DNA of 61,112 nt from Lachnospira sp. UBA4285 (GCA_002394965.1 DGVL01000088.1:1-61112), one strand, 5' to 3'; shown: positions 8,592 through 41,562, counted from the stretch's first letter. The notes: generated from the sequence alone by a model not told the origin. Translations and numbers: made by a program.

Positions 8592-9641
8592 ATGGGTGAA
8601 ATTGTTTTAAAGAACGTCACGAAGAAATTCGGAAGCAACACCGTCATACAGAATCTGAATCTGACGATCAAAGACGGATCATTCACGGTGCTTGTCGGGC
8701 CATCCGGATGCGGCAAAACGACGCTGCTGCGGATGATAGCCGGCATTGGCCCGCAGACATCCGGTACGGTGTGCATTGACGGAAAAGATATTTCCGAGGT
8801 GGCACCGGGAGACCGCGGTGTCGCGATGGTTTTTCAGAACTATGCGATTTATCCGACGATGTCTGTATATGAAAACATTGAGTTTGGTCTGAAGAACAAT
8901 CACATTCCTAAGGATAAGAGAAGAAAGCTGGTTGATGACGCCTGTGAAAAGGTCGGCCTTCAGGAACTGAAGGACAGACAGCCGAACGCCCTGTCCGGCG
9001 GACAGAGACAGCGGGTCGCTCTTGCGCGGGCTATCGTCAAGCAGCCTTCTGTCTTCCTGATGGATGAGCCGCTTTCGAACCTGGATGCCAAGCTGAGAGT
9101 ACAGATGCGCGTTGAACTGATCGAACTCCATCACAAGCTGAAGACGACTTTTGTGTATGTGACACATGATCAGATTGAGGCGATGTCCATGGCGGACACC
9201 ATCGTTCTGATGAATGAAGGCAAGATCATGCAGATGGATTCTCCGAGAAAGCTGTACCGGGATCCGGACAATCTCTTTGCTGCCCGCTTCATCGGGTCGC
9301 CGGCCATGAACATCCGCAGGTTCGGAAATGAGGAGTACGTCCTTGGCTTCCGCCCGGAGAAGGGCATTATCAGTACCCAGGAGCCTCAGGGATGTTACCG
9401 GACGAGCGGGACGGTGGTGGCCAAAGAGGATCTCGGAAGCGAAATCCATTATTCCGTCCGGGATATGTACGACGATGTATCGGTCATCCGGTCGGAAGAG
9501 GATGACATCACAGTCGGAGAAAAGGTCTGGATCGGTGCAAAGCCGGAAAATATCTACCTGTTTGGAAACGATCAGCTCCGGATCCGGGAGGATGATCCGC
9601 GGTATCCGGATCTGTGCCGTCAGGTCCTGGCACTGCAGTAA
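8592..9641 (+). CDS. Sugar ABC transporter ATP-binding protein (MsmK/MalK/UgpC type); the only ATPase in the locus
   Basis: 349 aa. Walker A 'GPSGCGKTT', Q-loop 'VFQNYA', signature 'LSGGQRQR', Walker B 'VFLMDEPLS', H-loop 'VTHD', and a C-terminal regulatory (TOBE-like) extension. Confidence 0.92.
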   Translation: MGEIVLKNVTKKFGSNTVIQNLNLTIKDGSFTVLVGPSGCGKTTLLRMIAGIGPQTSGTVCIDGKDISEVAPGDRGVAMVFQNYAIYPTMSVYENIEFGLKNNHIPKDKRRKLVDDACEKVGLQELKDRQPNALSGGQRQRVALARAIVKQPSVFLMDEPLSNLDAKLRVQMRVELIELHHKLKTTFVYVTHDQIEAMSMADTIVLMNEGKIMQMDSPRKLYRDPDNLFAARFIGSPAMNIRRFGNEEYVLGFRPEKGIISTQEPQGCYRTSGTVVAKEDLGSEIHYSVRDMYDDVSVIRSEEDDITVGEKVWIGAKPENIYLFGNDQLRIREDDPRYPDLCRQVLALQ

Positions 9642-9680
9642 GGATGCGACAGGGCTTACGCAGGCTGGCAGGAGGTCAGA

Positions 9681-10607
9681 ATGAAAAAAAACACAACCAA
9701 TACTGAGGAACTTGAGACAAGACACAGGGGTAACTGGAAAGAGAAGATCAAGCCGTACCTGTACATAGCCCCTGCCTTCGTCGGAATCGGGCTGTTCACG
9801 ATCTATCCGGTCATCAAGGTACTGATCTGGTCATTCCAGAAGGTAAATCAGCTGGATACATCGAAAACAAAATGGGTCGGAATGAAAAATTATTCCTATC
9901 TCCTTTCAAACGGCGCATTTCAGAAGACGCTGCTGAACACGTTCATTTACACCGGAGCGACGCTTGCCATCATCATGACATGTGCTCTGATCCTGGCATT
10001 CTGGCTGAACAAATCGCAGGGGCATCTGACGATGTTCACGCAGGGCGCTGCATTTATGCCGCATGTAATCTCGTCCGTGTCGATCGCCCTGGTTTTCTCC
10101 ATGATGATGAACCCGTCCTTCGGCCTGTTTAACAAGGTCTTAACGGCCGTAGGGCTTCCGGCCTCTCCGTGGCTGACAAGTTCCAGCACGGCGATGCCCA
10201 GCGTCGTCGGTGTCGCAAGCTGGAAGGCAATCGGTTACTACTGCCTGATCATCATCGGGGCGCTGCAGAGCATATCCGCCAGCATCTATGAGGCGGCTTC
10301 GCTTGACAATGCGGGGGCCGGTGTCACACTCCGCAAGATCACGATTCCGATGATCTCCCCACAGCTGTTCTTCGTGATGATCACCATGACGATCGGATCG
10401 TTCAAGGTGTTTGATACCGTCCGGCTTCTGACAGATGGCGGTCCCAACAATGCGACATCGGTTCTTGTTTACTACATCTATAAACAGGTGTTCTGGGAGA
10501 GCAATATCGGACGTGCGTGTGCCGCTGGCATTGTGCTTCTTGTCCTGGTAGGAGTTCTTACGGTTATTTATTTCAGGCTCCTGTCCAAACGGGTGCATTA
10601 CCAGTGA
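9681..10607 (+). CDS. CUT1 sugar ABC transporter permease (MalF/UgpA type)
   Basis: 308 aa with about 6 TM helices. EAA-loop-like 'YEAASLDNAGAGVTLRKITIP'. GGAGG RBS. Confidence 0.88.
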   Translation: MKKNTTNTEELETRHRGNWKEKIKPYLYIAPAFVGIGLFTIYPVIKVLIWSFQKVNQLDTSKTKWVGMKNYSYLLSNGAFQKTLLNTFIYTGATLAIIMTCALILAFWLNKSQGHLTMFTQGAAFMPHVISSVSIALVFSMMMNPSFGLFNKVLTAVGLPASPWLTSSSTAMPSVVGVASWKAIGYYCLIIIGALQSISASIYEAASLDNAGAGVTLRKITIPMISPQLFFVMITMTIGSFKVFDTVRLLTDGGPNNATSVLVYYIYKQVFWESNIGRACAAGIVLLVLVGVLTVIYFRLLSKRVHYQ

Positions 10608-14475: not shown

Positions 14476-15777
14476 ATGGCACTGGGTATCATAATCTGTA
14501 TTGTATTCTTAATCATGGCCGCTCTCATGATGACCAAGAAGATGCCGACACTGCTGGCACTTCCCATCATGGCGGTGCTGATTGCACTGATTGCCGGAAT
14601 GCCGATCAATTCCGGCGACGAAAATCTCTTTAAAACGGTTATTGCCGGAGGATCCACAAAACTGGCGGGAACGTATATTGCCATTCTGATCGCCTGCTGG
14701 CTGTCTCAGATCATGAGCCATACCGGCGTTACCAACACAGTCATCAAAAAGGCTGCGGAACTGGGCGGAGACAAGCCGTTTGTTGTGGCAGAGCTCATGT
14801 GCATCGTGACGCTTGTTCTCTTCACGGTTCTCATGGGAACCGGAGCTGTCGTCATGGTTGGCACGATTGTGCTTCCGATCCTGCTTTCGGTTGGCGTGCC
14901 GCCTATTGTCGCGAGCAATATCTTCCTCTGCGGTGTCTCAGGCGGTTATATCCTGAATCCGGCCAATATGTCCGGACTGATCAATATTACCGGGATCACG
15001 CAGTCGGACCTCACGATGTGTGCAGTTGTCGTGGCCGTGGGAGAAGTGGTATTCCTTACAACCGAACTGGTCGTGACATTTAAAAAGAACGGAAAGAAAT
15101 ATGCATTTGCAGCACCGGTAAAAGAGGAAGAAACACCGGATGACGAGCCGGAGACACTTCACGGCTTCCGGGGATTCATGGCATGCATCACGCCGGTTGT
15201 CATTGTAGTTCTGGCACTTGTCTTCAAGCTCGATGCCATCGTCTGCTTCTTCATCGGCATTCTCTGGATCATCATTTTTACGATTCATGGCAAATGGTCA
15301 AAGTACATGAGCATGATCACAAGGAGCTGCTATGACGGATTCAAGGACGGAGCGCCGGCCGCGATTCTCTTTGTCGGCATCGGCATGCTTCTGGCAGCGG
15401 TAACGGCCAAGGTTACACAGACGGCTCTGAATCCATTCATGACGGCGATCACGCCGAAGAGTGCCATCGGGTTCGTGATTTTCGCCGCGATTCTCTGTCC
15501 GCTGTCTCTTTACAGAGGACCGTTCAATATCTTCGGCCTCGGATCCGGGCTTGCCGCTTCAATCATCGGACTTGGCACACTGCCGGTGAAGCTTGTTGCA
15601 ACGGTATTCTACGCCTGCACCCGCTGGCCGGCTCAGGCAGGCCCGACGGCAACACAGGTTGTCTGGACTTCATCCTTTGTGGGATATGATCCGGTTACAA
15701 CAACAAATAAAATTCAGCCGGCAAACTGGATATTCACAGCCATCACGATTATTATCATGGCACTGTTGTATACCTGA
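14476..15777 (+). CDS. Polytopic permease of the ion-transporter superfamily (GntP/CitMHS/DcuC-like)
   Basis: 433 aa with more than 10 hydrophobic helices in two halves, separated by a charged loop 'KKNGKKYAFAAPVKEEETPDDEPE'. Family assignment is by general resemblance only. Confidence 0.55.
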   Translation: MALGIIICIVFLIMAALMMTKKMPTLLALPIMAVLIALIAGMPINSGDENLFKTVIAGGSTKLAGTYIAILIACWLSQIMSHTGVTNTVIKKAAELGGDKPFVVAELMCIVTLVLFTVLMGTGAVVMVGTIVLPILLSVGVPPIVASNIFLCGVSGGYILNPANMSGLINITGITQSDLTMCAVVVAVGEVVFLTTELVVTFKKNGKKYAFAAPVKEEETPDDEPETLHGFRGFMACITPVVIVVLALVFKLDAIVCFFIGILWIIIFTIHGKWSKYMSMITRSCYDGFKDGAPAAILFVGIGMLLAAVTAKVTQTALNPFMTAITPKSAIGFVIFAAILCPLSLYRGPFNIFGLGSGLAASIIGLGTLPVKLVATVFYACTRWPAQAGPTATQVVWTSSFVGYDPVTTTNKIQPANWIFTAITIIIMALLYT

Positions 15778-15787
15778 ACCGGACACG

Positions 15788-15819
15788 GCGGCTGCTTTTC
15801 GGGACAGAAAAGCAGCCGC
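15788..15819 (+). terminator. Strong intercistronic stem-loop (weak terminator/attenuator or mRNA stabiliser)
   Basis: Perfect 13-bp stem GCGGCTGCTTTTC / GAAAAGCAGCCGC, 6-nt loop. Only a weak U-tract (ACAGGTTTACGCTTT) follows. Confidence 0.4.
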
Positions 15820-15856
15820 ACAGGTTTACGCTTTACAAAGGAAGGAGGACGGATTC

Positions 15857-18016
15857 ATGAAGGTCAGAATTGGCATAGACGTCGGCGGTACATTTACCGA
15901 CGCGGTGGCTATTGATGATGAAACATACCAGCTTATTGGCGCTGTGAAAATACCGACAACCCACACGGCAAAGGAAGGTGTGGCAGCCGGAATTATACTT
16001 GTCCTGAAGAAAATTCTGGAAGAATGTAAGATTTCCCCGGAGGATGTCGTATTTATCGCACATGGCACCACACAGGCGACCAACGCTCTTCTGGAAGGAG
16101 ACGTTGCGCATGTTGGAATTCTCACGCTGGGAAGCGGGCTTGACGGTATGAAAGCCAAAAGAGATTCCGATATGGGGACAATCGAACTGGCAAAAGGAAA
16201 GTTCCTGAAAACCAGCAACTGTTTCGTGAACTCAGCGGACAGCGGCAATATCGACGCGGCAATACGGGATGGCGTGAAAAATCTTATTGACAGCGGATCC
16301 CAGTCGATTGTAGCGACGGAAGCATTCAGCGTGGACAATCCGGAGAATGAGAACAAGGTTGTCGACATCTGCGCACAGATGGGATACCCGGCAACAGCCG
16401 GAAACGATGTATCAAAGCTGTATGGCCTTAAAGTGCGCACACGCACGGCTGTGATTAACGGAAGTATTCTTCCGAAGATGCTCGAGACAGCCAATATGAC
16501 AGAGGAATCCATCAGGAAGGCGAAGATCAAGGCGCCCCTCATGGTGATGCGGTGCGACGGCGGTGTAATGACGATGGATGAGGTGCGCAAGCGCCCGATC
16601 CTCACGATTCTCTCCGGCCCTGCCGCGGGTGTGGCCGGTGCGCTGATGTATGAAAAGCTGACGGACGGGATATTCCTCGAGGTTGGCGGCACAAGTACGG
16701 ATATATCCTGCGTCAAGGACGGCAGTGTACAGATAAAATATGCGGAGGTCGGCGGGCATAAGACATATCTGAATTCTCTTGATGTCCGGACGGTCGGCAT
16801 CGGAGGAGGCTCCATGATCGAGCTTTCCGGGGGCGTGGCAGTTGATTGCGGACCGAGAAGTGCGCATATCGCAAATCTTGACTACGAATGCTACACGGCA
16901 GCGGAAAACATTGTAAATCCGGTGCTGAAGGGGATTCATCCGAAGGATACGGATCCGGAATACGCCTACATTGAATGTGAAAACGGGATGAAATTTGCCC
17001 TGACCCTTTCGGGAGCGGCCAATATCGCAGGCATGGTTCCGGAAAGCGACTACGCGAGAGGCAATATTGAGGCGGCGAAAAAAGCCTGGAAGCCGCTGGC
17101 AGACAATATGCATCTGAGCGTGGAACAGGCAGCGGAAAAGGTGCTGGAATTTGCAGCAAAAAAAGATGGTCTGGTTGTAAATGAACTGATTCATGATTAC
17201 GGACTCAACAAGGATACTGTGGTTCTCGTCGGAGGCGGAGGCGGTGCAAGCTCTATTGTTCCGTTCCTCGGAAAAACTCTCGGATGTCATTTCAAAATCG
17301 CAAAGAATGCATCGGTCATTTCCCCCATCGGCGTTGCCATGGCACTTGTCCGGGATATGGTTGAAAGAACCATCATGAATCCGACAGAGGCGGATATTCT
17401 TGCCATCCGGAAAGAGGCACTTGAAAAGGCTGTTCAATCGGGTGCAGATCCGGGCAGTGTCGAAGTTAAGGTTGAGATCGATACACAGGCCAACAAGCTG
17501 AAAGCTGTGGCGATCGGAGCCACGGAGCTTCGCACGAAGGATATCGCAGGAGCCAGGAAGACACCGGAAGAGATCAAAAAAATCGTGGCAGACAACGCAA
17601 AAATATCGCCGGATCTGGTTGAAATTGTCGGTGAGACTCCCTCGTATTATGCAGTTCAATTCAAGACACAGGTCAAGAGCTTCCTGTTCTTTAAGAAAAC
17701 GATCAATTCCGTCAGGATCGTAGATAAAGACGGGATTATCCGACTGCAGCGAAAGGACGGAGTGATTGCGAAGAGTAAAGTGGCAGACGCTTCAAAGATG
17801 CTGAATCATCTAATTGAAGAATATATGATTGCAGATGACGGCGGCGAAGAGATGCCGAATGTCTTTATCGCAACAGGGAGCAGGATTATTGATCTGTCGG
17901 GAATGCAGAGCAGAGAGCAGATGCGCACGCTGGCCCAGGCCGAACTGGGAGGGCTGAATCCGGATGAACAGCTGCTGTTCCTCTGCACGCTGAAGATGTC
18001 GAATGTGAGGGCGTGA
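15857..18016 (+). CDS. Hydantoinase/oxoprolinase-family (HyuA-like, ASKHA-fold) protein, with no HyuB partner in the window
   Basis: The ORF track starts at 15593, inside the previous gene. GAAGGAGGA (15841-15849) precedes the ATG at 15857. N-terminus 'MKVRIGIDVGGTFTDAV', then 'AHGTTQATNALLEG', 'LSGPAAGV', 'FLEVGGTSTDIS', 'VGIGGGS', 'VLVGGGGGA'. Confidence 0.75.
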   Translation: MKVRIGIDVGGTFTDAVAIDDETYQLIGAVKIPTTHTAKEGVAAGIILVLKKILEECKISPEDVVFIAHGTTQATNALLEGDVAHVGILTLGSGLDGMKAKRDSDMGTIELAKGKFLKTSNCFVNSADSGNIDAAIRDGVKNLIDSGSQSIVATEAFSVDNPENENKVVDICAQMGYPATAGNDVSKLYGLKVRTRTAVINGSILPKMLETANMTEESIRKAKIKAPLMVMRCDGGVMTMDEVRKRPILTILSGPAAGVAGALMYEKLTDGIFLEVGGTSTDISCVKDGSVQIKYAEVGGHKTYLNSLDVRTVGIGGGSMIELSGGVAVDCGPRSAHIANLDYECYTAAENIVNPVLKGIHPKDTDPEYAYIECENGMKFALTLSGAANIAGMVPESDYARGNIEAAKKAWKPLADNMHLSVEQAAEKVLEFAAKKDGLVVNELIHDYGLNKDTVVLVGGGGGASSIVPFLGKTLGCHFKIAKNASVISPIGVAMALVRDMVERTIMNPTEADILAIRKEALEKAVQSGADPGSVEVKVEIDTQANKLKAVAIGATELRTKDIAGARKTPEEIKKIVADNAKISPDLVEIVGETPSYYAVQFKTQVKSFLFFKKTINSVRIVDKDGIIRLQRKDGVIAKSKVADASKMLNHLIEEYMIADDGGEEMPNVFIATGSRIIDLSGMQSREQMRTLAQAELGGLNPDEQLLFLCTLKMSNVRA

Positions 18017-18023
18017 AGGGCTT

Positions 18024-30712: not shown

Positions 30713-30718
30713 AGTGAT

Positions 30719-31948: not shown

Positions 31949-32065
31949 GATAAGTTTAATGTCAAATAAAGGAAAGAATTTTTAGTTTTTGATAAGTACA
32001 ATGTAACTAAATTAAAGAGTGTGAATAATTAATTGAAAATCTGTTCGCACAGGGGGAGGTTGGTT

Positions 32066-33886
32066 GTGCTTAGAAAAGTGCTGCATACTGTAAAACATGC
32101 CTGTGATGTCTGCGTGATTGGCGGCGGAATTGGTGGTATGTTCAGTGCAGTTTCTGCCGCTAGAAATGGTGCGAAGGTTGTTCTGATGCAGGATCGTCCG
32201 GTCCTGGGAGGAAATGCGAGTTCTGAGATACGAATGTGGATTTCCGGGGCAGGAACCAGAGTACGAGATCTTCAGGAAACAGGCCTTATGGAAGAACTGT
32301 TGCTGGAGAACATGTATCGAAATCCGACCCGGAATTATACGATTTGGGACAGTATTCTTTATGAGATGATCAAGAAAGAACCTAACATTGAACTGCTTCT
32401 GAATTGCTCCTGCTGTGAGGCGGATATGGATAATGATAGTATCAGTTCAATATCAGGCTTCCAACTTACTACATATACGTGGCATGTGGTTAGTGCTTCT
32501 ATTTTCATCGATTGTTCCGGTGACAGTATACTTGCTGAACTCACAGGCGCTGAGTACCGGGTTGGACGGGAAGCAAAAGATGAATTCAAAGAAGAGTTTG
32601 GACTGTCAGAAGCTGACAGTAAAACTATGGGTATGAGTCTGCTGCTCCAGGCGAGAGAAACAGACCATCCGGTGAGTTTTACACCACCTTCCTGGGCATA
32701 TACGTTTAAAACAGATGCGGATATGCATAATAAACCGCATGATTTATACCATATAAATACAAATTTCTATTGGATAGAACTTGGTGGGGAATATGACACC
32801 ATACATGACACAGAGAAAATTCGTGATGAATTGCTGAAGATTGCGTTTGGAGTCTGGGATCATATCAAAAATCAGGGAGAACATGGGGCCGATAATTGGG
32901 AGCTTGAATGGATCGGTTTTCTCCCAGGGAAAAGAGAAAGCCGCAGATATATTGGAGATTACATATTAACGCAGAATGATGTTGAGAAACATCCGGTTTT
33001 CGAGGATACTGTCGCGTATGGCGGATGGCAGATCGACAATCATCTCCCTGGCGGTTTTTTTATGAATGGAGAAAATGGTGGACATCTGGAGAAAAGAAGG
33101 CTGACGGAACCGTATGGTATCCCGTATCGCTGCCTGTATTCCAAAAATATTCGAAACCTAATGTTTGCAGGCCGAAATATTAGTGCAACCCATATTGGAA
33201 TCAGCACAACGAGAGTGATGGGGACAGTTGGCGTACTAGGGCAGGCGGCTGGTACCGCGGCGGCAATAGCCGTGAGAAATGGGTTGCTCCCAAGAGAAGC
33301 CGGAAAGCAGAAGATAAAAGAAATACAGAACCAGCTTCTTGAAGATGATTGCTTCCTTCCGGGGTTTACGCGTCCTATATCAGACCTTACTAAAAAGGCG
33401 AAGATGCAGTGTGATTATGGTGATGGCTCTGCTTTAATAAATGGGATGGATCGGAGAATATGGGGGAGAGATAACGGATACTATGGCAAAACAAATCAGG
33501 CAATAACGTATCGATTTGATCGGCTGACAGAGATTCATGGTTTTCGGCTTGTGACAGATAGTGATTTAAACCGAGAGTATGTGGAAGGAAATCCGGATGG
33601 TGTAAATACATCCAGCGTCTTGTTCTATCCGGCCAGCTATCATCACACAACTTTTGGGTTTCCGCAGTGCATGCTCAAATCGTTCCGGATTGAGGCAGAG
33701 AATGCAGATGGAAGCTGGAAAACTGTCTATAGGGAAACAGCCAATCATCAGCGGCTTATACGAAAGCCATTGTCAGTCTGTACAACAGCGATTCGTCTAA
33801 TTCCACTTTCGACATATATGAGTGAAAGAAAAAATGAGGACTATGGGAGTTCAACAGCGCATATTTTTGCTTTTGAAGTAAATTGA
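32066..33886 (+). CDS. FAD-dependent oxidoreductase with a C-terminal galactose-binding-like domain, paralog C (in the low-GC island)
   Basis: The ORF track starts at TTG 32033. GGGGGAGG (32052-32059) favours the GTG at 32066. 'CDVCVIGGGIGGMFSAVSAARNGAKVVLMQDRPVLGGNASSEIRMW', 'GVWDHIKNQGEHGADNWEL', 'RESRRYIGDY', 'AYGGWQIDNH', 'IPYRC'. It ends in 'HIFAFEVN'. Confidence 0.8.
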   Translation: MLRKVLHTVKHACDVCVIGGGIGGMFSAVSAARNGAKVVLMQDRPVLGGNASSEIRMWISGAGTRVRDLQETGLMEELLLENMYRNPTRNYTIWDSILYEMIKKEPNIELLLNCSCCEADMDNDSISSISGFQLTTYTWHVVSASIFIDCSGDSILAELTGAEYRVGREAKDEFKEEFGLSEADSKTMGMSLLLQARETDHPVSFTPPSWAYTFKTDADMHNKPHDLYHINTNFYWIELGGEYDTIHDTEKIRDELLKIAFGVWDHIKNQGEHGADNWELEWIGFLPGKRESRRYIGDYILTQNDVEKHPVFEDTVAYGGWQIDNHLPGGFFMNGENGGHLEKRRLTEPYGIPYRCLYSKNIRNLMFAGRNISATHIGISTTRVMGTVGVLGQAAGTAAAIAVRNGLLPREAGKQKIKEIQNQLLEDDCFLPGFTRPISDLTKKAKMQCDYGDGSALINGMDRRIWGRDNGYYGKTNQAITYRFDRLTEIHGFRLVTDSDLNREYVEGNPDGVNTSSVLFYPASYHHTTFGFPQCMLKSFRIEAENADGSWKTVYRETANHQRLIRKPLSVCTTAIRLIPLSTYMSERKNEDYGSSTAHIFAFEVN

Positions 33887-33919
33887 ATGAAAATTCAGGA
33901 GATGAAAAGGAGGAAGTAA

Positions 33920-35345
33920 ATGAAGAAGGCAATATCGGGAGTTATGGCATCATTACTTGCTGTAACAATACTGGCAGGATGCGGAGGAGAAAGCGGTGGT
34001 GGCTCAATATCGTCAGGAAACACCGGAACAACGAAGTCAGCTGGAGTGACAACCACAACTTCTTCCACCATTTCTGGAGAACCGGTTTATATCGATCCAG
34101 ATGCGGCAAACGTGACGGGAACCGTTAACTTCTATACGGCTTTCGCGGGCGAGAATGGAACAGATGCTCTCATTAAGGAATTCAACTCCTATTATCCTAA
34201 TGTTGAAGTGATTCCTACAGTTTATAAGAATAACGGGGATGGAAATGTAGGGCTGGATACAGCCATTATGGCTGGAAATGTAGACGTAATTCTGAGCTTC
34301 GGTGTGGCGAATACATCAGCGCGCTGGGACAACAAATTGCTGATGGATATTACGGATAAATTAAAGAATGACAACCTGGATCTCGTAAAAGAATGGGGGA
34401 CTGATACATATAAATCATCAGATGGGAAGGTGTATGTATTTCCTTCAGGAGGTTTATCAGTTTACATTGCCATCAATAAAGACAAGTGGGATGCTGCCGG
34501 ACTTGGCGATATACCGTCAGAATGGACTTGGGATGAATAATATTGATGCATGCCGCAAACTTACTGTGAAAGACGCATCTGGTAAAACAATTACTTATGG
34601 TGGATCAGACTTCAATCAGACAGATTATTGGACATATTCGGTGCGCCAGAGTAAAGGAAAGAATGCTTTTTATAAAGAAGATGGTACAGCTGATTTTGAC
34701 AATCCGCTTTTTGCAAAGGTGCTGCAGAGAGAGCTGGATGCTGAAAACGAAGGCATTTGGTATTCAAAAGCAAATTATCTGGCAGATTCGACGAAATCCA
34801 GGGATATGTTTTTAAATGGTACGAATGCCACAACAGTTGAATCTATTCTGACACGTTACATTGCAGCGGCTGATCCGCAGTTTAAAATTACATATGCTCC
34901 ATATCCGGTCAACGAAAAAGGCGAAACGAATTATATGGCGGGAGCAGTGCCGAATTCTTTCGTGGGTGTAACAGCTAATACCAAATCTCCACAGGCAGCT
35001 TATGATTTTGCCAAGTTCGTTGCAACTTATGGGAATAAATATATGTATGCGGCTGGGCATGCAGGAAAATGGACCGGCATGAAAACAGATGATATTCTTG
35101 CCGTGGTATTTGGCTCGAAAGAAGCTGCTGAAAAGTATATTGATACAGACAGTTTCGAAAAATATGTGGTGGCGACCGGACAACCAGCTTATTCTGAGAA
35201 TGATATTACTGCATATTCAGATATTCAGTCGTTGATCAGTGAATATACGAAATACTGTCTGAACGGAGAGACAACTGTTTCGGAAGCAATGAAAGAGATG
35301 CAAAGCGCCGCGAATGAGGCAATTCAGGATGCTAAAAAAGGATAA
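33920..35345 (+). pseudogene. ABC solute-binding lipoprotein gene (cassette C) interrupted by a +1 frameshift near 34536-34541
   Basis: Two overlapping ORFs (33920-34540 and 34422-35345) together align with the cassette B SBP. Frame 1 ends '...IPSEWTWDE*'. The next frame continues '(N)IDACRKLTVKDASGKT...', against cassette B 'KGWTYEEFREAAKKLTKGDGQDKT'. Removing one A from GAATAATATT restores 'WDEYIDACRKL'. Lipobox 'LAGCGG'. Confidence 0.75.
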
Positions 35346-35364
35346 TTAGCTTTCGATATAACAA

Positions 35365-35407
35365 AGAGCTGCCGTATCAGAAATAGATATTGCTGAGCGG
35401 CGGCTCT
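35365..35407 (+). other. Intercistronic stem-loop after the SBP gene (mRNA stabiliser/partial terminator)
   Basis: 10-bp stem AGAGCTGCCG / CGGCGGCTCT (one G-U pair), 23-nt loop, no U-tract. Confidence 0.35.
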
Positions 35408-35429
35408 CTTGTGACAGGAGGAGTGGTAA

Positions 35430-36311
35430 ATGTCTGAAAGACAGAAAAGAGAAAACAGGGCGGGATGGCTTTTTATGCTTCCAGCTATGGTCCTATTTAT
35501 TACCTTGGTCATCTTTCCGGTGATTATGTCCCTGTTTCTTTCGTTCACCAAGTGGAACTTTCTTTCAGGTGTATCTGGTATTAAATGGGTTGGGCTGAGC
35601 AATTTTGTAAAGCTTCTTACAAGAGACAGGAAGTTCAGCATTGCATTAGCAAACACATTCATATATGCCGTGACAACAGCACCTGTTTCAATTGTACTCG
35701 CTTTGATCTTTGCGTATATGATCAATGACAAGGTATATCTGAAAAAGTTTAACCGAATGTGCTTTTTTATCCCTTATATCTCGAGTATGGTGGCATTAAG
35801 TGCAGTATTTCGCTTCTTGTTTCGAAGCGATGGACCTATCAATTCAGTGCTGATACATGTTTTTCATGTTTCTGTTGTGCCAGAATGGCTTACCAGTACC
35901 AGTTTGTGTAAAATACCGATCATTTGTGTGATGATCTATGCAGGGATAGGCTATTCATTGATCGTATATATGGCGGCCCTGCAAAATGTACCTGGTGAAT
36001 TATATGATGCAGCGGCAGTTGATGGCGCAGGAAACGTTCGGACATTCTGGAAAATAACTATTCCGCTGGTTTCCCCGACAACGTTTTATTTGAGCATTGT
36101 TCGTCTGATTGCAGCTTTCAAAGTATTTACCGCCATTAATGTTATGGGAATGGCTGATACAGCTCCCAGTATAGTTACACAGATATATACCAATGCATTC
36201 GGAGCGTATGAATTTGGAAACGCCAGTGCAGAAGCCTGGATCCTTGTTTTCATTATCCTTGTTATTACTGGCATTCAGTTCCTGGCTCAGAAAAAATGGG
36301 TAGTGTATTGA
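35430..36311 (+). CDS. CUT1 sugar ABC transporter permease (MalF/UgpA type), cassette C
   Basis: 293 aa. AGGAGG RBS. EAA loop 'YDAAAVDGAGNVRTFWKITIP'. Confidence 0.88.
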   Translation: MSERQKRENRAGWLFMLPAMVLFITLVIFPVIMSLFLSFTKWNFLSGVSGIKWVGLSNFVKLLTRDRKFSIALANTFIYAVTTAPVSIVLALIFAYMINDKVYLKKFNRMCFFIPYISSMVALSAVFRFLFRSDGPINSVLIHVFHVSVVPEWLTSTSLCKIPIICVMIYAGIGYSLIVYMAALQNVPGELYDAAAVDGAGNVRTFWKITIPLVSPTTFYLSIVRLIAAFKVFTAINVMGMADTAPSIVTQIYTNAFGAYEFGNASAEAWILVFIILVITGIQFLAQKKWVVY

Positions 36312-36341
36312 TGAAAAATAAGAATTGAGAGGTCGGGAGCT

Positions 36342-37172
36342 GTGAAAAGAGAAAAGCAAGGAACCAAAGTAATTAACACAATATGGGTTACGGTGTGTGG
36401 CTGCCTGTTCTTGATGCCATTGCTTTGGATGTTGTCTTCATCCGTAAAGTCAGGGCCAGAAGTTTTTGCGGATGATTTTAAATGGATACCGGAAATAATT
36501 CGTTGGGACAATTATATTAAGGTTTGGACGAATGCGAATGCTCCTTTTTGGAGAGCAATGTGTAACTCCCTGTTCGTATCGGTAGTGAGTACGCTGGGGC
36601 AGCTTCTGGTTTCATCGATGGCTGGCTATGCTCTCGCAAAGATTCAGTTCAAGGGAAAACATGCTGTTTTTATTGCAATGATGGCAACGATGATGATCCC
36701 GGGCCAGGCTACAATAATCCCCAAATTTATACTATTTCGTACAATTGGGCTCTATGATACCTTATGGTCACTGATTCTGCCGGGATGGTTCAGTATCACA
36801 TCGATCTTTCTGCTGAGACAATTCTATATGGGTCTTCCAAATGACCTTATGGAATCTGCAAAAGTTGATGGAGCTGATCACTTTTTAATCTGGTACCGGG
36901 TTTTGATGCCGCTGACAAAGCCGGTCATGGTAACAGTCATCGTATTGTCTTTCATCAATTCGTGGAATGAATATCTGCATGCTCTGATTTTTCTTCCATC
37001 AAATCAACTCTACACGGTTTCACTTGCGATTCAATATTGGATGAATATGACTGATGAATATAATCTCATGATGACGGCAGCGGCGAGTGCTGTGATCCCA
37101 GTGATTATCCTGTACCTGTTTACTCAGAAATATTTTATCGCGAGTATTGCAACTACTGGTGTGAAAGGGTGA
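36342..37172 (+). CDS. CUT1 sugar ABC transporter permease (MalG/UgpE type), cassette C
   Basis: 276 aa. GTG start. EAA loop 'MESAKVDGADHFLIWYRVLMP'. Confidence 0.88.
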   Translation: MKREKQGTKVINTIWVTVCGCLFLMPLLWMLSSSVKSGPEVFADDFKWIPEIIRWDNYIKVWTNANAPFWRAMCNSLFVSVVSTLGQLLVSSMAGYALAKIQFKGKHAVFIAMMATMMIPGQATIIPKFILFRTIGLYDTLWSLILPGWFSITSIFLLRQFYMGLPNDLMESAKVDGADHFLIWYRVLMPLTKPVMVTVIVLSFINSWNEYLHALIFLPSNQLYTVSLAIQYWMNMTDEYNLMMTAAASAVIPVIILYLFTQKYFIASIATTGVKG

Positions 37173-37188
37173 AAGAAAAGAAAGAAGA

Positions 37189-37896
37189 ATGAAGGAATTA
37201 CAAGGAAATATTCATTTGATCGCTCATCGCGGGTTTACGCAGAGAGCAGTGATGAATTCAGTTGCTGCATTTGAAGAGGCAGGAAAAAGGCAGTATTGGG
37301 CGATAGAGACAGATGTAAGAAAAACGAAAGATGGTGTGTTGGTCTGTAGCCATGATCCGGTAGTCGATACATTATTTGATGGATCCGGAAAAATTTGCAA
37401 CATGAAGTGGGAAGAACTGCAGAAACTACATTATAAAAATGGTCAGAATGGTAGAATTCCCATGTTCATAGATTATCTGCAGATCTGCCATGATTACGGA
37501 TGCATACCGTTCATTGAAACAAAAACGGATGACATCTCTGATGTTTTGGAGGTATCGAGAAGCATTTTTCCATCTGAAAGAATTATCATATCAAGTATAT
37601 GCTTTGAACATTTGGTGCATGTCAGACAGTTGGATCGAAATGTATTTGTCCATCATATTTTCAGCGATGAAGATAAAATGATAAAATTAGCTCAGATGGG
37701 GAATGCAGGAGTGTCTCTGAATTGTCCGATACCGGATGAAGTATCAAAGGAACAGATTGCGCGGATTCATGCCAAAGGCCTGAAAGTTTGCCTGCGGGCT
37801 GGAGATACATTGAAAGATATCAAAAAAATGACAAGGCTTGGATTGGATTATATTCCAACAAACAAAATCACGCCAGAAGATGTTCGGAGACTGTAA
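37189..37896 (+). CDS. Cytoplasmic glycerophosphodiester phosphodiesterase (GDPD/UgpQ-like)
   Basis: 235 aa. 'LIAHRGF' and 'AIETDVRKTKDGVLVCSHD' match the GDPD HR...E.D...H catalytic signature. No signal peptide. Confidence 0.8.
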   Translation: MKELQGNIHLIAHRGFTQRAVMNSVAAFEEAGKRQYWAIETDVRKTKDGVLVCSHDPVVDTLFDGSGKICNMKWEELQKLHYKNGQNGRIPMFIDYLQICHDYGCIPFIETKTDDISDVLEVSRSIFPSERIIISSICFEHLVHVRQLDRNVFVHHIFSDEDKMIKLAQMGNAGVSLNCPIPDEVSKEQIARIHAKGLKVCLRAGDTLKDIKKMTRLGLDYIPTNKITPEDVRRL

Positions 37897-37918
37897 CTAT
37901 ATTTAAGGAGGCAGATTA

Positions 37919-38581
37919 GTGAAGATCCAGGCAGTATTACTGGATATGGACGGGCTGATGGTAGATACTGAACGGCAATCTGATGAAGGGTGGACTTGGG
38001 CATGCCGTCAGCAGGGAATAGAGATTCCCCCCGGATTACTGGATCGTTTTAAGGGAGCAACAAAGGAAAGCTGCCGGAAAGCGTTTGACAATTATTATCA
38101 AGGCCGTTTTGACTACGAATATACAAGAATGCTGAAAGAGCAGTATATCGCAAGGATTCAGTCGACAGAGGGCGTACCACCTAAGCCAGGCCTATTTGTT
38201 CTTTTAAACGATCTGCGTGAAAAGCATATTCCGGCGGTTGTAGCCACATCTACAGAGCGCAAAACTGCAGAGAAAATCCTGCACAATATCGGAGCGTGGG
38301 ATTATCTTACCGATGTCGCATATGGAGATGAGATCAAGAAAAGCAAGCCGGCGCCGGATATTTTCCTTCTTGCGGCTAAAAAAGCTGGCGCCGCTCCTTC
38401 ATGCTGCATCGTGCTGGAAGACAGCATTAATGGAATTAAATCGGGGGCGGCCGCAGGCTGCGCTGTTATTCATATTCCGGATACTGTACAGATTCCGCCG
38501 GCGATATTGCAGCTGACGAAGGCTGTGGTCCCGACACTTGCTTATGTGCCTGAACTTATTGAAAAATGGAATCAAAGTTGA
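37919..38581 (+). CDS. HAD-superfamily hydrolase (beta-phosphoglucomutase / sugar-phosphatase subfamily IA)
   Basis: 220 aa. GTG start after AAGGAGG. Motif I 'LLDMDGLMVDTE', motif II 'ATST', motif III/IV 'KSKP...EDSINGIKSG'. Confidence 0.8.
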   Translation: MKIQAVLLDMDGLMVDTERQSDEGWTWACRQQGIEIPPGLLDRFKGATKESCRKAFDNYYQGRFDYEYTRMLKEQYIARIQSTEGVPPKPGLFVLLNDLREKHIPAVVATSTERKTAEKILHNIGAWDYLTDVAYGDEIKKSKPAPDIFLLAAKKAGAAPSCCIVLEDSINGIKSGAAAGCAVIHIPDTVQIPPAILQLTKAVVPTLAYVPELIEKWNQS

Positions 38582-40481: not shown

Positions 40482-40506
40482 ATAATATTAGAAAGAGGTG
40501 TCGATT

Positions 40507-41562
40507 ATGTCTGCAGAGGAAAGAAAATGGATGCGTCAGGAGCTGATGACGGCGCCGGGTGAGATTACCATTCAGAAGACGGCGATCCCGGAGCTGGGCC
40601 CGGATCAGGTACTTGTGCGGATCAAAAGACTTGGTATCTGCGGGAGTGACATTCATGTCTACCATGGGACGCACCCGTATACAAAATATCCGGTCACGCA
40701 GGGACATGAGGTGTCCGGTCAGATTGTCGCGTGCGGGCAGTATGCGAAAAAATATGCCATCGGTCAGAAAGTCACGATCGAGCCGCAGGTTTTCTGCGGC
40801 CGCTGCTACCCCTGTCTGCACGGGAAGTACAATCTCTGCGAGCACCTGAAGGTCATGGGCTTTCAGACGGTCGGGACGGCGAGTGACTATTTTGCGGTGG
40901 ACGAATCAAAGGTGACGGCGCTCCCGGATGAAATGAGTTATGATGAGGGAGCCATGCTGGAGCCGCTGGCCGTGACGATTCACGCGGCAAAGCGATATCC
41001 TGATATGAAGGGGGCCAATGTGGCGATTCTGGGGTGCGGGCCGATCGGAATCCTGCTCGCCCAGTCTGCCAAAGCTTTCGGGGCCAGAAAAGTTCTGAGC
41101 ACCGATGTGTCGGACTTTCGACTGAAGCTGGCCAGACAGGTTGGCGCAGACGCAGTGGCAAACACAAAGACCGAAGACTTTGGAGAAGTGCTGAATCGTG
41201 AATTCGGTGCCGATAAAGCCGATGTGATCTATGACTGCGCCGGCAATGACACGACCATGAATCTTGCCATACGCAATGCCCGGAAGGGAAGTACCATTAT
41301 TCTGGTTGCGGTTTTCGGGAAGATGGCAAGTGTCGATCTGGCTAAGCTTAATGACTCGGAACTTGATCTGAATACATCGATGATGTATCGCCATGAGGAT
41401 TTCGAGGATGCCATCCGTTTCGTGAAAGAAGGAAAGATTCAATTAAAACCACTGATGAGCCGACACTTTGACATGGAGCATTACCTGGACGCCTACCGGT
41501 ACATTGACAAGAACAGTGAGAAGACGATGAAGGTTCTTATTGATGTCGATCCGGATGCATAA
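40507..41562 (+). CDS. Zn-dependent medium-chain dehydrogenase (sorbitol / threonine dehydrogenase-like polyol dehydrogenase)
   Basis: AAAGAGG precedes the ATG at 40507 (the track uses the GTG at 40498). 'LGICGSDIHVYHG', 'GHEVSG', structural-Zn cluster 'CGRCYPCLHGKYNLC', Rossmann 'ILGCGPIGIL'. Confidence 0.85.
   Translation: MSAEERKWMRQELMTAPGEITIQKTAIPELGPDQVLVRIKRLGICGSDIHVYHGTHPYTKYPVTQGHEVSGQIVACGQYAKKYAIGQKVTIEPQVFCGRCYPCLHGKYNLCEHLKVMGFQTVGTASDYFAVDESKVTALPDEMSYDEGAMLEPLAVTIHAAKRYPDMKGANVAILGCGPIGILLAQSAKAFGARKVLSTDVSDFRLKLARQVGADAVANTKTEDFGEVLNREFGADKADVIYDCAGNDTTMNLAIRNARKGSTIILVAVFGKMASVDLAKLNDSELDLNTSMMYRHEDFEDAIRFVKEGKIQLKPLMSRHFDMEHYLDAYRYIDKNSEKTMKVLIDVDPDA

Follow-up and report, generated by a model that had tools for sequence, protein, structure and literature searches.

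The UgpBAEC importer of E. coli, with its cytoplasmic GDPD UgpQ, is a CUT1 ABC system for organophosphate salvage that takes up glycerol-3-phosphate and glycerophosphodiesters. Teichoic acids are degraded by secreted GlpQ (a GDPD) plus PhoD in Bacillus subtilis, and by GlpQ in Staphylococcus aureus. The Agrobacterium acc operon for agrocinopines combines ABC import of a sugar phosphodiester with its cleavage by cytoplasmic AccF, a phosphodiesterase, and dephosphorylation by AccG, a phosphatase. The PF01261 family takes in the phosphodiesterases endonuclease IV (EndoIV) and CbiR, a cobamide phosphodiesterase, both of which cut sugar-phosphate diester bonds (PMC7733943).

The window is a 61,112-nt stretch of DNA from the genome of an uncultured gut member of the Clostridia, and its nearest MAGs carry a Lachnospiraceae label. 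Pfam scans of every sizeable ORF between 8.5 and 41.6 kb recovered the inventory of an earlier note at essentially the same coordinates (Table 1). All three CUT1 ABC cassettes listed there were found by Pfam, as were the four paralogous FAD proteins, which belong to PF12831. The two Zn-dependent dehydrogenases, with a ribulokinase-like kinase and a 3-epimerase, were found by Pfam and NCBIfam. PF01663, GDPD, PF00300 and PF01261 were also present. Of five phosphoesterases said to lack signal peptides, all were found and no signal peptide was detected in any (NPP1, short NPP, His_Phos_1, GDPD, HAD_2), but the copy at 30365-30712 covers just 107/342 profile positions and is therefore a gene remnant. 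Catalytic motifs are intact in the sequences of the four full-length enzymes. The earlier note had missed three regulators (DeoR, GntR and AraC), a HydA-like gene, a membrane protein, a 222-aa protein and an LRR protein with a ComEC-like metallo-beta-lactamase (MBL) fold. Of the three cassettes, the first alone includes an ATPase gene.

Table 1. Features in and beside the 8.5-41.6 kb region, in window coordinates.
Feature	Position	Strand	Basis and remarks
GDSL hydrolase	2959-3618		Just outside region
Ribulokinase-like FGGY kinase	3723-5348	-	Pfam; NCBIfam ribulokinase 414.5 bits vs cutoff 428
Ribulose-phosphate 3-epimerase (RPE)	5378-6052	-	Pfam; NCBIfam rpe 216.6 vs cutoff 212.6
ZnADH1, Zn-dependent alcohol/polyol(-phosphate) dehydrogenase	6066-7064	-	NCBIfam best: galactitol-1-P 5-dehydrogenase, 191 bits vs cutoff 550
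DeoR-family regulator	7158-8069	+	Pfam HTH_DeoR + DeoRC; probable start ~7299
UgpC/MsmX-like ATPase, importer 1	8592-9641	+	Pfam; NCBIfam best UgpC, 385 vs cutoff 432
Permeases, importer 1	9681-10607, 10635-11465	+	Pfam
SBP1, UgpB-like lipoprotein	11504-12934	+	Pfam; LTAC lipobox
NPP1, NPP-type (alkaline-phosphatase superfamily) putative phosphodiesterase	13032-14342	+	PF01663, 134.9 bits
Membrane protein (unk433)	14476-15777	+	At least 10 TM segments
Hydantoinase-A/ASKHA-like protein	15857-18016	+	No HydB partner
222-aa protein (unk222)	18024-18692	+	No family
FAD1, 453 aa	18713-20074	+	PF12831, 374.9 bits; no C-terminal lectin-like domain
Histidine-phosphatase superfamily protein (HisPhos)	20149-20928	+	PF00300 (His_Phos_1); RHG motif residues 7-9
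TIM1, MJ1311 type	20972-21856	+	PF01261
BspA-type LRR + ComEC-like MBL-fold protein	21954-23189	+	Pfam; SHADPDH motif; NCBIfam ComEC/Rec2 2.7e-15
GntR/UTRA regulator	23167-23880	-	Pfam
SBP2, importer 2	24099 or 24201-25646	+	Pfam
Permeases, importer 2	25679-26641, 26645-27520	+	Pfam; no ATPase gene
FAD2, 619 aa	27570-29429	+	PF12831, Pfam; C-terminal CBM32/F5-8-type-C-like domain
TIM2, TIM1 paralogue	29445-30350	+	PF01261
NPP remnant, 121 aa, N-terminal third only	30347-30712	+	PF01663 positions 1-107 of 342
AraC regulator	30719-31651	-	Pfam
FAD3	32066-33886		PF12831, Pfam
SBP3	33920-35345		Split by 1-nt insertion near 34539
Permeases, importer 3	35430-36311, 36342-37172		Pfam
GDPD, cytoplasmic	37189-37896		Pfam; no signal peptide
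HAD_2 polyol/sugar-phosphate phosphatase	37919-38581		Best matches: beta-PGM family, mannitol-1-phosphatase, hexitol phosphatase
FAD4	38631-40481	+	PF12831; 47% identical to FAD2
ZnADH2, Zn-dependent dehydrogenase	40498-41562	+	Pfam, NCBIfam; missing in closest relative
PTS EIIC	42878-44146		Just outside region

The lack of carbohydrate-active families claimed for the region also held. No GH, PL, CE or PTS Pfam family was matched in the 33 forward-called ORFs between 8.5 and 41.6 kb, or in 10 long antisense or alternative ORFs of the same interval. The absence of GH genes is no anomaly for CUT1 importers of small molecules; UgpB, too, belongs to a CUT1 system. Judged by count alone, the eight phosphoesterase-type genes among the region's ~30 genes far exceed the number usual for a sugar locus. 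The phosphoester theme holds up, and goes further than the earlier note had recognised.

Module A contains the DeoR gene, importer 1 and NPP1. The nearest PDB matches of SBP1 are a G3P-binding protein (9lff, 2.5e-28) and E. coli UgpB (4aq4, 1.9e-18); its best NCBIfam match is UgpB at 93.7 bits, far under the equivalog cutoff of 411. NPP1 is a predicted cytoplasmic phosphodiesterase, for which ENPP4 and Xanthomonas NPP are the closest structures. Its catalytic set (D14, T51, N72, D199, H203, D246, H247) is invariant in 17 family members, and H376 is nearly so. The polyol/pentulose catabolic trio (3723..7064) is divergent from the DeoR operon and remains beside NPP1 in both relative arrangements seen (L005, L119). 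A CUT1 cassette adjoins the NPP-family gene in 11/45 non-redundant loci; six loci have DeoR close by and six have polyol genes. Three quarters of the 45 have no adjoining importer. DeoR genes accompany NPP-importer operons in L029, L048, L053, L084, L085, L099 and L119. Genes for polyol catabolism (Zn-ADH, FGGY or PfkB kinases, aldolase, RPE) adjoin such operons time and again; L084 and L099 have DeoR beside SBP-ATPase-perm-perm-NPP-class II aldolase-FGGY-ZnADH-PfkB. A Hungatella operon, PHP-LRR/MBL-NPP-TIM-SBP-ATPase-perm-perm-DeoR, includes a TIM1 homologue.

The unk433/HydA/unk222 insert (14476..18692), part of module A, is missing in the closest relative (L005/L013) and is located after NPP in L119/L120. 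It stays outside the scheme proposed below and was counted against it. No signal peptide was found in the LRR-MBL protein. Its homologues lie directly upstream of NPP in L029, L100 and L103, and beside the GntR operon in L005/L013. The ComEC-like protein is another probable phosphodiesterase.

TIM1 and TIM2, which are 71% identical, had been described as isomerase/lyase-like. Two PF01261 proteins are indeed present, but both keep the full trinuclear metal site of endonuclease IV. Compared with a verified Nfo sequence, all nine ligands (9/9 in TIM1: H81, H123, E163, D196, H199, H222, D232, H234, E263) are kept in both proteins and in eight homologues. TIM1 and TIM2 are therefore probably phosphodiesterases too, and are predicted to be metal-dependent. 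Their best solved relative, MJ1311 (PDB 3wqo, 3.3e-12), shares eight ligands in the aligned stretch. In overall similarity ketose 3-epimerases are as close as EndoIV, and both proteins score under every curated nfo and CbiR cutoff (CbiR model, 25-30 bits vs 105). The predicted structure of TIM2 is of low confidence (pLDDT 64).

Module B is a core operon beside a GntR gene, an arrangement kept in L005, L008, L009, L011, L013 and L014. SBP2 looks like ordinary sugar SBPs, its nearest relatives being the uncharacterised 4rk2 and Lmo0181. FAD2 orthologues have a TIM gene immediately downstream in L005-L009, L013 and L022-24; in L011 and L014 the TIM gene belongs to their operon but comes behind the importer genes. 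FAD4 is directly 3' of TIM2 in relatives, completing the operon. Here the remnant of an NPP1 paralogue follows TIM2; its identity with the N-terminal part of NPP1 is 82% in protein and 83% in DNA sequence, and the copies in L001 and L002 are truncated too.

Module C (30719..38581) has a GC content of 0.414 and is missing from L005/L013. SBP3 is intact in two 99.99%-identical contigs and carries a single extra base here; with this frameshift, module C is probably crippled in this genome. The same order, AraC beside FAD-SBP-perm-perm-GDPD, was found in L114, L117 and L118. Giant signal-peptide GDPD proteins (1078 and 1840 aa) are encoded upstream of it in L114 and L117.

The four flavoproteins are 25-47% identical in pairs, with FAD1 25-28% identical to the other three. 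In the AF2 model of FAD2 (pLDDT 83), the FAD domain has a loose Foldseek likeness to FrdA, MnmG and geranylgeranyl reductase (TM 0.25-0.32), and the C-terminal domain resembles CBM32 and the lectin domain of lectinolysin (TMt 0.75-0.80). FAD2 has thousands of homologues in Clostridia at 60-67% identity. Its orthologues (63-66%) often stand alone among unrelated genes (GHMP kinase, S1 protein, aminotransferase), so the flavoprotein may act on a common metabolite and not on an imported glycan fragment. FAD3 orthologues occur in the AraC/GDPD operons and in overlapping, translationally coupled HAD-FAD-HisPhos trios. The trio pattern is echoed in the window by HAD followed by FAD4 and by FAD1 followed by the histidine phosphatase, the latter pair recurring in L115/L116/L122. 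The link between flavoproteins and phosphoesterases is therefore a true one, although no neighbouring gene encodes a partner to accept electrons from the flavoproteins.

Each module was found again elsewhere: DeoR with a UgpB-like importer and NPP, often near polyol-catabolic genes; GntR with importer, FAD, TIM and FAD; AraC with FAD, importer and GDPD, beside the secreted GDPD giants in two other genomes; and the HAD-FAD-HisPhos trios. Importer+NPP, importer+GDPD and flavoprotein+phosphatase sets recur in unrelated genomes. This recurrence, the G3P binders nearest to SBP1 and the EndoIV-type site lend partial support to the phosphodiester-salvage idea; the class of substrate, the sequence of steps and the flavoprotein chemistry are inferred.

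We give an even chance to the reading that the region is a cluster of separately regulated operons salvaging phosphodiesters, a variant of Ugp-like organophosphate salvage. The operons have a design in common: a CUT1 importer, at least one predicted cytoplasmic metallophosphodiesterase or phosphatase, and one or two PF12831 flavoproteins. It suggests that phosphate-linked polyol or glycerol compounds are salvaged. In module A the UgpB-like SBP would bring in an organophosphodiester, likely candidates being a glycerophosphodiester or a polyol-phosphate fragment, as from teichoic acids or phosphoglycans. NPP1 would cut the diester in the cytoplasm, probably assisted by TIM1, the ComEC-like MBL protein and the histidine phosphatase, and the freed polyol or polyol-phosphate would reach central metabolism through the neighbouring Zn-ADH, FGGY kinase (ribulokinase-like) and Ru5P 3-epimerase. 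Module B is the conserved core, in which the second importer would supply the two flavoproteins FAD2 and FAD4 and TIM2, a predicted phosphodiesterase. Module C, acquired horizontally, is a Ugp-like set whose GDPD would yield glycerol-3-phosphate and whose HAD would dephosphorylate a polyol or sugar phosphate. The part proposed for the flavoproteins is oxidation, within a phosphorylated intermediate, of its polyol or glycosyl moiety. No extracellular depolymerase was found in the window.

The earlier note had suggested that the whole 33 kb acts as a single system, taking up phosphodiester-linked glycosyl-polyol fragments and breaking them down by means other than classical glycosidases. The modules do have a common theme. 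The NPP cassette, polyol genes, LRR-MBL gene and FAD2/TIM/FAD4 operon occur together in the L005 and L119 arrangements and in L011, and the NPP and FAD2/TIM/FAD4 cassettes adjoin in three places (this window, L005 and the distant MAG L011). However, there are three different regulators, one importer is frameshifted, one NPP is truncated, and each module occurs on its own elsewhere. Missing from the closest relative are 14.4-21.9 kb, the low-GC block (30.3-38.6 kb) and ZnADH2, and the GC of that block is foreign (0.41 vs 0.52-0.56). Synteny and GC reveal a mosaic history. Rather than a single 33-kb unit, the region is made up of three or four import operons, each under separate regulation; the single-system reading is quite improbable. 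Import of glycosylated fragments is not supported either, as nothing found points to a glycosyl moiety.

It is unlikely that these operons have nothing to do with one another and serve ordinary sugar or polyol uptake, with phosphoesterases doing generic sugar-phosphate or nucleotide housekeeping and glycosidases lying elsewhere or being needless for monomer substrates. Many small molecules enter through CUT1 importers, SBP2 is similar to sugar SBPs, the Zn-ADH, kinase and epimerase genes would be enough for free polyols, and FAD2 orthologues and most NPP homologues are found without importers. Yet NPP, GDPD, HAD, HisPhos and EndoIV-type TIM genes are linked with importers and PF12831 genes across distant genomes, HAD-FAD-HisPhos genes are translationally coupled, SBP1 is nearest to G3P binders, and secreted GDPD giants adjoin module C homologues. 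Nucleotide-type phosphodiesters or pyrophosphates (oligonucleotides, CDP-polyols, ADP-ribose, cobamide-like compounds) have a small chance of being the substrates instead of teichoic-acid-like polyol phosphates: NPP, EndoIV-type TIM, ComEC-like MBL and PHP domains have nuclease or nucleotide-processing relatives, and CbiR belongs to PF01261. The nfo and CbiR scores argue against this, as do the polyol dehydrogenase, kinase and aldolase neighbours and the G3P binders nearest to the SBP; nucleoside, deoxyribose and cobamide genes are not nearby, and no riboswitch was found. Oxidative glycoside cleavage by flavoprotein-TIM pairs, through a 3-keto-glycoside and beta-elimination as in DgpA/DgpBC, CarA/CarBC and the Bacteroides 3-keto-glucoside lyase pathway, is very improbable. 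The FAD-PF01261 pairing is conserved, FAD2 has its CBM32-like domain, and the B. thetaiotaomicron lyase 8tct is among the TIM2 structural matches (rank 47). But known pathways use Gfo/Idh/MocA or GMC families, and PF12831 is neither; the TIM barrels have the trinuclear ligand set, not a single-metal lyase/epimerase site; a PDB sequence search gave no specific TIM similarity to DgpB or CarB; and the flavoproteins pair with GDPD, HAD and HisPhos where the TIM is missing.

Phosphodiester salvage, the reading we prefer, resembles the acc operon in logic: an intact phosphodiester would be imported, then cut and dephosphorylated inside. The SBP class and organism group differ, and acc is not known to include a flavoprotein. 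With GlpQ/PhoD the modules would share GDPD chemistry on poly(glycerol-phosphate), and the signal-peptide GDPDs of L114 and L117 fit there, but here the phosphoesterases are all cytoplasmic, PhoD (PF09423) is lacking, and cleavage would come after fragment import. Within PF01261, TIM1 and TIM2 have MJ1311 as best solved relative and keep the residues that bind three metals in endonuclease IV, while falling under the curated nfo and CbiR cutoffs. With the Dgp, Car and Bacteroides pathways the locus shares a redox enzyme plus a PF01261 TIM in GH-free sugar-uptake loci; it differs in its oxidoreductase family and TIM site, and its flavoproteins have phosphoesterases as other partners. With UgpBAEC-UgpQ the locus shares a CUT1 importer, UgpB as nearest characterised relative of SBP1, a UgpC-like ATPase and, in module C, a cytoplasmic GDPD after the permeases. 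In contrast to Ugp, SBP1 scores far under the UgpB equivalog cutoff, module A has an NPP-type enzyme in place of GDPD, and the regulators are of DeoR or AraC type, Pho control not being evident. The modules here also have PF12831 flavoproteins, MJ1311-type TIM, MBL, HAD and HisPhos proteins, which Ugp does not.

The open reading frames of the window were listed, every plausible gene was compared with Pfam, and key genes were also compared with NCBIfam. These scans bore out the gene inventory of the earlier note and added genes that it had overlooked. The interval had been described as free of glycosidases and lyases. No Pfam family of GH, PL, CE or PTS type was matched by the 33 called ORFs or by 10 long antisense or alternative ORFs between 8.5 and 41.6 kb (threshold of the GH/PL search, Pfam E≤1e-3). 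PF01663, PF03009, PF00300, PF01261 and an FAD family (PF12831), whose presence had been anticipated, were all found in the region. The phosphoesterases had been placed in the cytoplasm, and a signal peptide was found in none of them.

Genes identified in the window, with positions in nucleotides
Feature	Position	Strand	Source	Remark
GDSL hydrolase	2959-3618			just outside the region
Ribulokinase-like FGGY kinase	3723-5348	-	Pfam/NCBIfam	
Ribulose-phosphate 3-epimerase (RPE)	5378-6052	-	Pfam/NCBIfam	
Zn-dependent dehydrogenase (ZnADH1)	6066-7064	-	Pfam	
DeoR regulator	7158-8069			overlooked earlier
CUT1 ABC cassette 1	8592-12934		Pfam	own ATPase
NPP1, full NPP-type PF01663 gene	13032-14342		Pfam	
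Membrane protein	14476-15777			at least 10 TM segments; overlooked earlier
Hydantoinase-A-like ASKHA protein	15857-18016			without HydB partner; overlooked earlier
222-aa protein	18024-18692			no family; overlooked earlier
PF12831 flavoprotein (FAD1)	18713-20074		Pfam	
His_Phos_1 protein	20149-20928		Pfam	
PF01261 TIM barrel (TIM1)	20972-21856		Pfam	
BspA-LRR and ComEC-like MBL protein	21954-23189			overlooked earlier
GntR regulator	23167-23880	-		overlooked earlier
CUT1 ABC cassette 2	24099/24201-27520		Pfam	without ATPase gene
PF12831 flavoprotein (FAD2)	27570-29429		Pfam	
PF01261 TIM barrel (TIM2)	29445-30350		Pfam	
PF01663 fragment	30347-30712		Pfam	121 aa
AraC regulator	30719-31651	-		overlooked earlier
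PF12831 flavoprotein (FAD3)	32066-33886		Pfam	
CUT1 ABC cassette 3	33920-37172		Pfam	without ATPase gene
GDPD	37189-37896		Pfam	
HAD_2 hydrolase	37919-38581		Pfam	
PF12831 flavoprotein (FAD4)	38631-40481		Pfam	
Zn-dependent dehydrogenase (ZnADH2)	40498-41562		Pfam	
PTS EIIC	42878-44146			just outside the region

The GDPD protein matched PF03009 with 96 bits, contains the HRG...ExD...HD motifs and lacks a signal peptide. The DMDG motif of the HAD protein and the RHG motif of the histidine phosphatase are intact. A short PF01663 gene is indeed present where a truncated NPP copy had been counted among the phosphoesterases, but it covers only 107/342 profile positions and is a remnant, sharing 82% protein and 83% DNA identity with residues 1-110 of NPP1. 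In the gene for SBP3, the binding protein of cassette 3, one extra A near 34539 (34530-34545) breaks the reading frame into ORFs 33920-34540 and 34422-35345. The gene is intact in two contigs from that species (L001/L002), which are otherwise 99.99% identical over 21.8 kb. The extra base may reflect an assembly error or a frameshift specific to this strain.

An Rfam scan produced no riboswitch hinting at a ligand, and promoter and terminator scans gave matches at chance level only. A strong hairpin with a 12-bp stem and a T-run is located on the minus strand at 20097-20127, where 75 nt separate FAD1 from the gene for the histidine phosphatase. Its role could be that of a terminator, an attenuator or an intra-operon RNA-processing site. 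Between the PTS EIIC gene and mraZ, long ORFs overlap on opposite strands (44158-45789 plus, 44230-45618 minus), and the plus-strand ORF has no Pfam family. The division and cell-wall cluster at 45909-54581 looks condensed. It comprises mraZ, mraW, an ftsL-like gene, a PBP gene, a MurD-like ligase gene, ftsW, a family-less 325-aa ORF and ftsZ; murE, murF, mraY and murG were not recognised among the ORFs scanned.

The region was divided into module A, the DeoR operon with importer 1 and NPP1; module B, the GntR operon with importer 2, FAD2, TIM2 and FAD4; and module C, the low-GC AraC block with FAD3, importer 3, GDPD and HAD. Orthologues of FAD2, a 619-aa flavoprotein, were located in species-representative genomes and the loci were compared gene by gene. 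Closest to the window are L005 and L013, two MAGs of uncultured Lachnospiraceae, whose flank proteins are 83-99% identical to those of the window. Their layout is NPP1, FGGY-RPE-ZnADH1 (minus strand), LRR-MBL, GntR (minus strand), SBP2-perm-perm-FAD2-TIM2-FAD4, YchF and PTS. Both lack 14.4-21.9 kb (membrane protein, HydA-like protein, 222-aa protein, FAD1, HisPhos, TIM1), 30317-38649 (NPP remnant, AraC, FAD3, importer 3, GDPD, HAD) and ZnADH2. The GC content of 30.7-38.6 kb is 0.414, compared with 0.52-0.56 in the flanks. In another relative (L119-121), whose NPP1 is 95% identical, the window's order of ZnADH1, DeoR, importer, NPP, membrane protein and HydA is found. The NPP cassette, the polyol genes, the LRR-MBL gene and the GntR operon keep together as neighbours, and do so again in a distant Bacillota MAG (L011). 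The missing blocks, the GC contrast and the layouts of the relatives therefore indicate that the interval is a mosaic, each module having a regulator and a history of its own.

The GC-0.41 block missing from the closest relatives spans 8.3 kb. The remnant of an NPP1 paralogue at its left edge suggests recombination between modules, and a plasmid search with the block gave no match. The trio at 14476-18692 between NPP1 and FAD1 (membrane protein, HydA/ASKHA-like protein and 222-aa protein) is missing from L005/L013 and present in L119/L120. The membrane protein has faint TRAP/CitMHS-like similarity. Pfam scans at high E-values yielded nothing usable for either the 222-aa or the 433-aa protein.

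In module A, the best solved relatives of the binding protein SBP1 were sn-glycerol-3-phosphate-binding proteins (9lff, 2.5e-28; E. coli UgpB, 1.9e-18). UgpB was also its best NCBIfam model, at 93.7 bits, far under the equivalog cutoff of 411. SBP3 is weakly UgpB-like (3.8e-8). Cassette 1 encodes two PF00528 permeases and an ABC_tran/TOBE_2 ATPase, for which UgpC was the best model (385 bits, cutoff 432). NPP1 matched PF01663 with 134.9 bits (cutoff 23). Its Thr nucleophile and bimetal ligands are kept; D14, T51, N72, D199, H203, D246 and H247 are invariant among 17 aligned family members and H376 is nearly so. NPP1 has neither a signal peptide nor a TM segment, and its gene follows the importer genes. 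While characterised NPPs are typically secreted or ecto-enzymes, NPP1 is predicted to be cytoplasmic.

The NPP1 family is well conserved, with ∼50% identity across Clostridia, one Treponema and one Anaerolineae MAG, and its homologues form >1000 90%-identity clusters. For gene context, 80 metagenomic loci were collapsed to 45 non-redundant loci, each with at least 4 kb of flank. Neighbours in the compared loci were called mostly by homology to window proteins and the co-occurrence samples are small and partly redundant; on this basis, a homologous CUT1 cassette adjoins the NPP gene in 11/45 loci, with DeoR in 6, polyol-type genes in 6, a TIM homologue in 3 and an LRR-MBL homologue in 3. One locus (L084) reads DeoR, then SBP-ATPase-perm-perm-NPP-class II aldolase-FGGY kinase-Zn-ADH-PfkB kinase, and L099 has the same order as judged by size and homology. 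A Hungatella operon reads PHP-LRR/MBL-NPP-TIM-SBP-ATPase-perm-perm-DeoR. The importer and NPP genes thus form a recurrent operon. This arrangement is missing from three quarters of NPP family members. The importer-NPP unit is repeatedly joined to enzymes that oxidise, phosphorylate or split polyols and ketoses. Downstream of the NPP gene in L052, L109 and L111 are 3-4 tandem paralogous SBP genes followed by a single ATPase-permease set, which suggests one importer for several related ligands.

FAD1-4 all match PF12831 end to end, with 298-375 bits against a cutoff of 27. Residues G17, G19 and G22 of the dinucleotide-binding GxGxxG motif are invariant, and FAD binding is predicted from sequence. 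In the literature and PDB searched, PF12831 had no characterised member and no solved relative, and no paper that addresses the family's function turned up in full-text searches. PDB sequence searches with FAD1 and FAD2 found relatives at the dinucleotide-binding motif only. The FAD2 model is confident (pLDDT 83), and its Foldseek matches to FrdA/SdhA, MnmG and geranylgeranyl reductase are loose (TM 0.25-0.32). Because the PDB matches are confined to the motif and the FrdA/MnmG-type matches are loose, no function could be transferred. The C-terminal ∼150 residues of the predicted model resemble CBM32 and the lectinolysin lectin domain (Foldseek, TMt 0.75-0.80). The idea that some PF12831 proteins carry a ‘xanthan lyase’ label had no support in the literature searched and was dropped.

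FAD2 and FAD3 each have thousands of close homologues in Clostridia, and the flavoprotein homologues form thousands of 90%-identity clusters. Orthologues of FAD2 occur with GntR, importer, TIM and FAD4 in L005, L008, L009, L011, L013 and L014 (FAD4 is missing in L008 and L009), with a TIM barrel alone in L006, L007 and L022-24, and solitary among unrelated genes in L010, L012, L015-18, L021, L025 and L027. The solitary orthologues suggest a commoner metabolite as flavoprotein substrate. In L015, L016 and L018 (∼position 10001), the orthologue (63-64% identity) sits between GHMP kinase-like and S1-domain genes with no transporter or phosphoesterase near it, which is unexpected for a dedicated catabolic enzyme. 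In an Oscillospiraceae MAG (L027/L028:4476-9979), DeoR, Fe-ADH and a second, 436-aa PF12831 protein precede the orthologue, with a 670-aa sulfatase-domain protein (LtaS-like size) upstream.

Orthologues of FAD3 (71-83% identical) occur in operons in which AraC is followed by FAD-SBP-perm-perm-GDPD (L114, L117, L118). Just upstream of the operon are GDPD proteins with a signal peptide in L114 (4594-7830, 1078 aa) and L117 (2317-7839, 1840 aa), candidate surface depolymerases of glycerol-phosphate polymers. The L117 protein also has a C-terminal hydrophobic anchor. Other FAD3 orthologues form overlapping HAD_2-FAD-His_Phos_1 trios (L115:8224-11435, L116:3924-7135, L122:2972-6134) in otherwise unrelated surroundings. 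This trio is a compact conserved unit and might be the minimal functional core. The window shows the same adjacencies, HAD to FAD4 and FAD1 to HisPhos. From the GDPD operons, the trios and these adjacencies, the flavoprotein-phosphoesterase link is therefore conserved in this PF12831 clade, and it is the most solid new point of the finding. Literature searches for FAD oxidoreductase and GDPD clusters, and for FAD proteins linked to 3-keto chemistry and xylose isomerase-like partners, gave nothing relevant; they matched author names, a Pfam clan name or unrelated loci.

In profile searches, TIM1 and TIM2 lie at roughly the same distance from ketose 3-epimerases, IolO/IolE, endonuclease IV and the cobamide phosphodiesterase CbiR. 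No curated cutoff was approached (nfo TIGR00587, 31-32 bits against 129.65; CbiR, 25-30 against 105), including those of epimerase and isomerase equivalogs (best, D-psicose 3-epimerase, 45 against 300). TIM1, TIM2 and eight homologues from other genomes were then aligned with E. coli endonuclease IV (Nfo), whose sequence is identical to PDB 1qtw. All nine endonuclease IV metal ligands, which we take to be H69, H109, E145, D179, H182, H216, D229, H231 and E261 in Nfo, are kept in TIM1, TIM2 and 8/8 homologues. This numbering of the residues that bind the three metals reportedly goes back to Hosfield et al. 1999. In TIM1 and TIM2 the corresponding residues are H81, H123, E163, D196, H199, H222, D232, H234 and E263, which include HxND and DxH motifs and His/Asp ligands extra to the single-metal E-D-H-E site of ketose 3-epimerases. 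The best solved relative was MJ1311 (3wqo, 3.3e-12), with identity at all eight ligands within the aligned stretch. The MJ1311 structure reportedly has all nine EndoIV ligands on a fold resembling that of epimerases. The AlphaFold model of TIM2 is poor (two-sequence alignment, pLDDT 64) and its Foldseek neighbours are ketose epimerases, so the overall fold does not discriminate. The PF01261 superfamily includes true phosphodiesterases, EndoIV and CbiR (PMC7733943). Judging from the ligand set, we consider a metallophosphodiesterase role rather likelier than an isomerase role for both proteins. If so, the region has eight phosphoesterase-type genes. The annotation ‘sugar phosphate isomerase/epimerase’ is probably wrong for these barrels, a caution for annotators.

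The best-supported reading, which we give about an even chance, is that the operons are Ugp-like ‘import, then cleave inside’ systems for organophosphodiesters. In module A, a glycerol- or polyol-phosphodiester would be imported via the UgpB-like SBP and hydrolysed by NPP1, with the histidine phosphatase, TIM1 and the MBL protein as possible helpers. ZnADH1, the ribulokinase-like kinase and RPE would then take the polyol or polyol-phosphate on to xylulose-5-phosphate, and this could plausibly be a ribitol or arabitol route. An importer-encoded, UgpQ-like cytoplasmic GDPD is found in module C only, module A having NPP instead. Module C would be a horizontally acquired Ugp-like set in which GDPD is followed by a HAD phosphatase of polyol- or sugar-phosphate type. 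In other genomes it would act downstream of a secreted GDPD; here the secreted GDPD is missing and the SBP gene has a frameshift. The conserved core is module B, in which a sugar-like SBP would be coupled to TIM2, the predicted phosphodiesterase, and to two flavoproteins. The flavoproteins are proposed to oxidise a phosphorylated intermediate at its polyol or glycosyl portion, and no electron-transfer partner is encoded nearby. A bolder and unlikely extension is that PF12831 flavoproteins with a CBM32-like domain and MJ1311-type trinuclear-metal TIM barrels form an unrecognised cytoplasmic route dismantling polymers with glycosyl- or polyol-phosphate linkages (fragments of teichoic acids or phosphoglycans), with flavin chemistry replacing the glycosidase. 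They might oxidise the sugar or polyol beside the phosphodiester, or act without redox on a glycosyl-phosphate, as UDP-galactopyranose mutase does.

Other explanations were weighed against the Ugp-like reading. The earlier note had proposed a single integrated 33-kb system for salvage of phosphodiester-linked glycans or polyols. The three regulators, the blocks missing from L005/L013 and the GC shift at module C speak against this, and we regard it as quite improbable. The operons could instead be unrelated to one another and serve ordinary uptake of sugars or polyols, their phosphatases being generic, which seems fairly unlikely. That they serve salvage of nucleotide-type phosphodiesters is quite improbable, on a par with the single system. 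Our initial idea was that the FAD and TIM pair performs oxidative glycoside cleavage like Dgp/Car. It was downgraded and now appears highly improbable, given that the TIM barrels hold the EndoIV ligand set, the flavoprotein has GDPD, HAD and HisPhos as further partners, and the oxidoreductases belong to PF12831 and to neither Gfo/Idh/MocA nor GMC. In addition, no DgpB/CarB chain was found in the TIM2 PDB sequence search, and 8tct appeared at structural rank 47 only.

These operons occur widely among Clostridia. Because of Gram-positive cell walls, the gut is rich in teichoic acids and further polyol polymers with phosphodiester links, and to our knowledge the recycling of these polymers by anaerobes is largely unknown. 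The analysis ties the orphan PF12831 flavoproteins and the orphan MJ1311 TIM-barrel type, both abundant in gut Clostridia, to phosphoester metabolism and offers concrete testable substrates for both. The flavin route, if true, would show what a very large orphan family of flavoproteins does in gut Clostridia.

Among known systems, UgpBAEC-UgpQ comes closest. Related in concept are teichoic-acid degradation by GlpQ/PhoD, which are secreted, and the acc operon, which handles agrocinopine. The modules differ from all of these in having an NPP-type enzyme, an MJ1311-type TIM barrel together with a ComEC-like MBL protein, and PF12831 flavoproteins, and in being under DeoR, GntR or AraC control.
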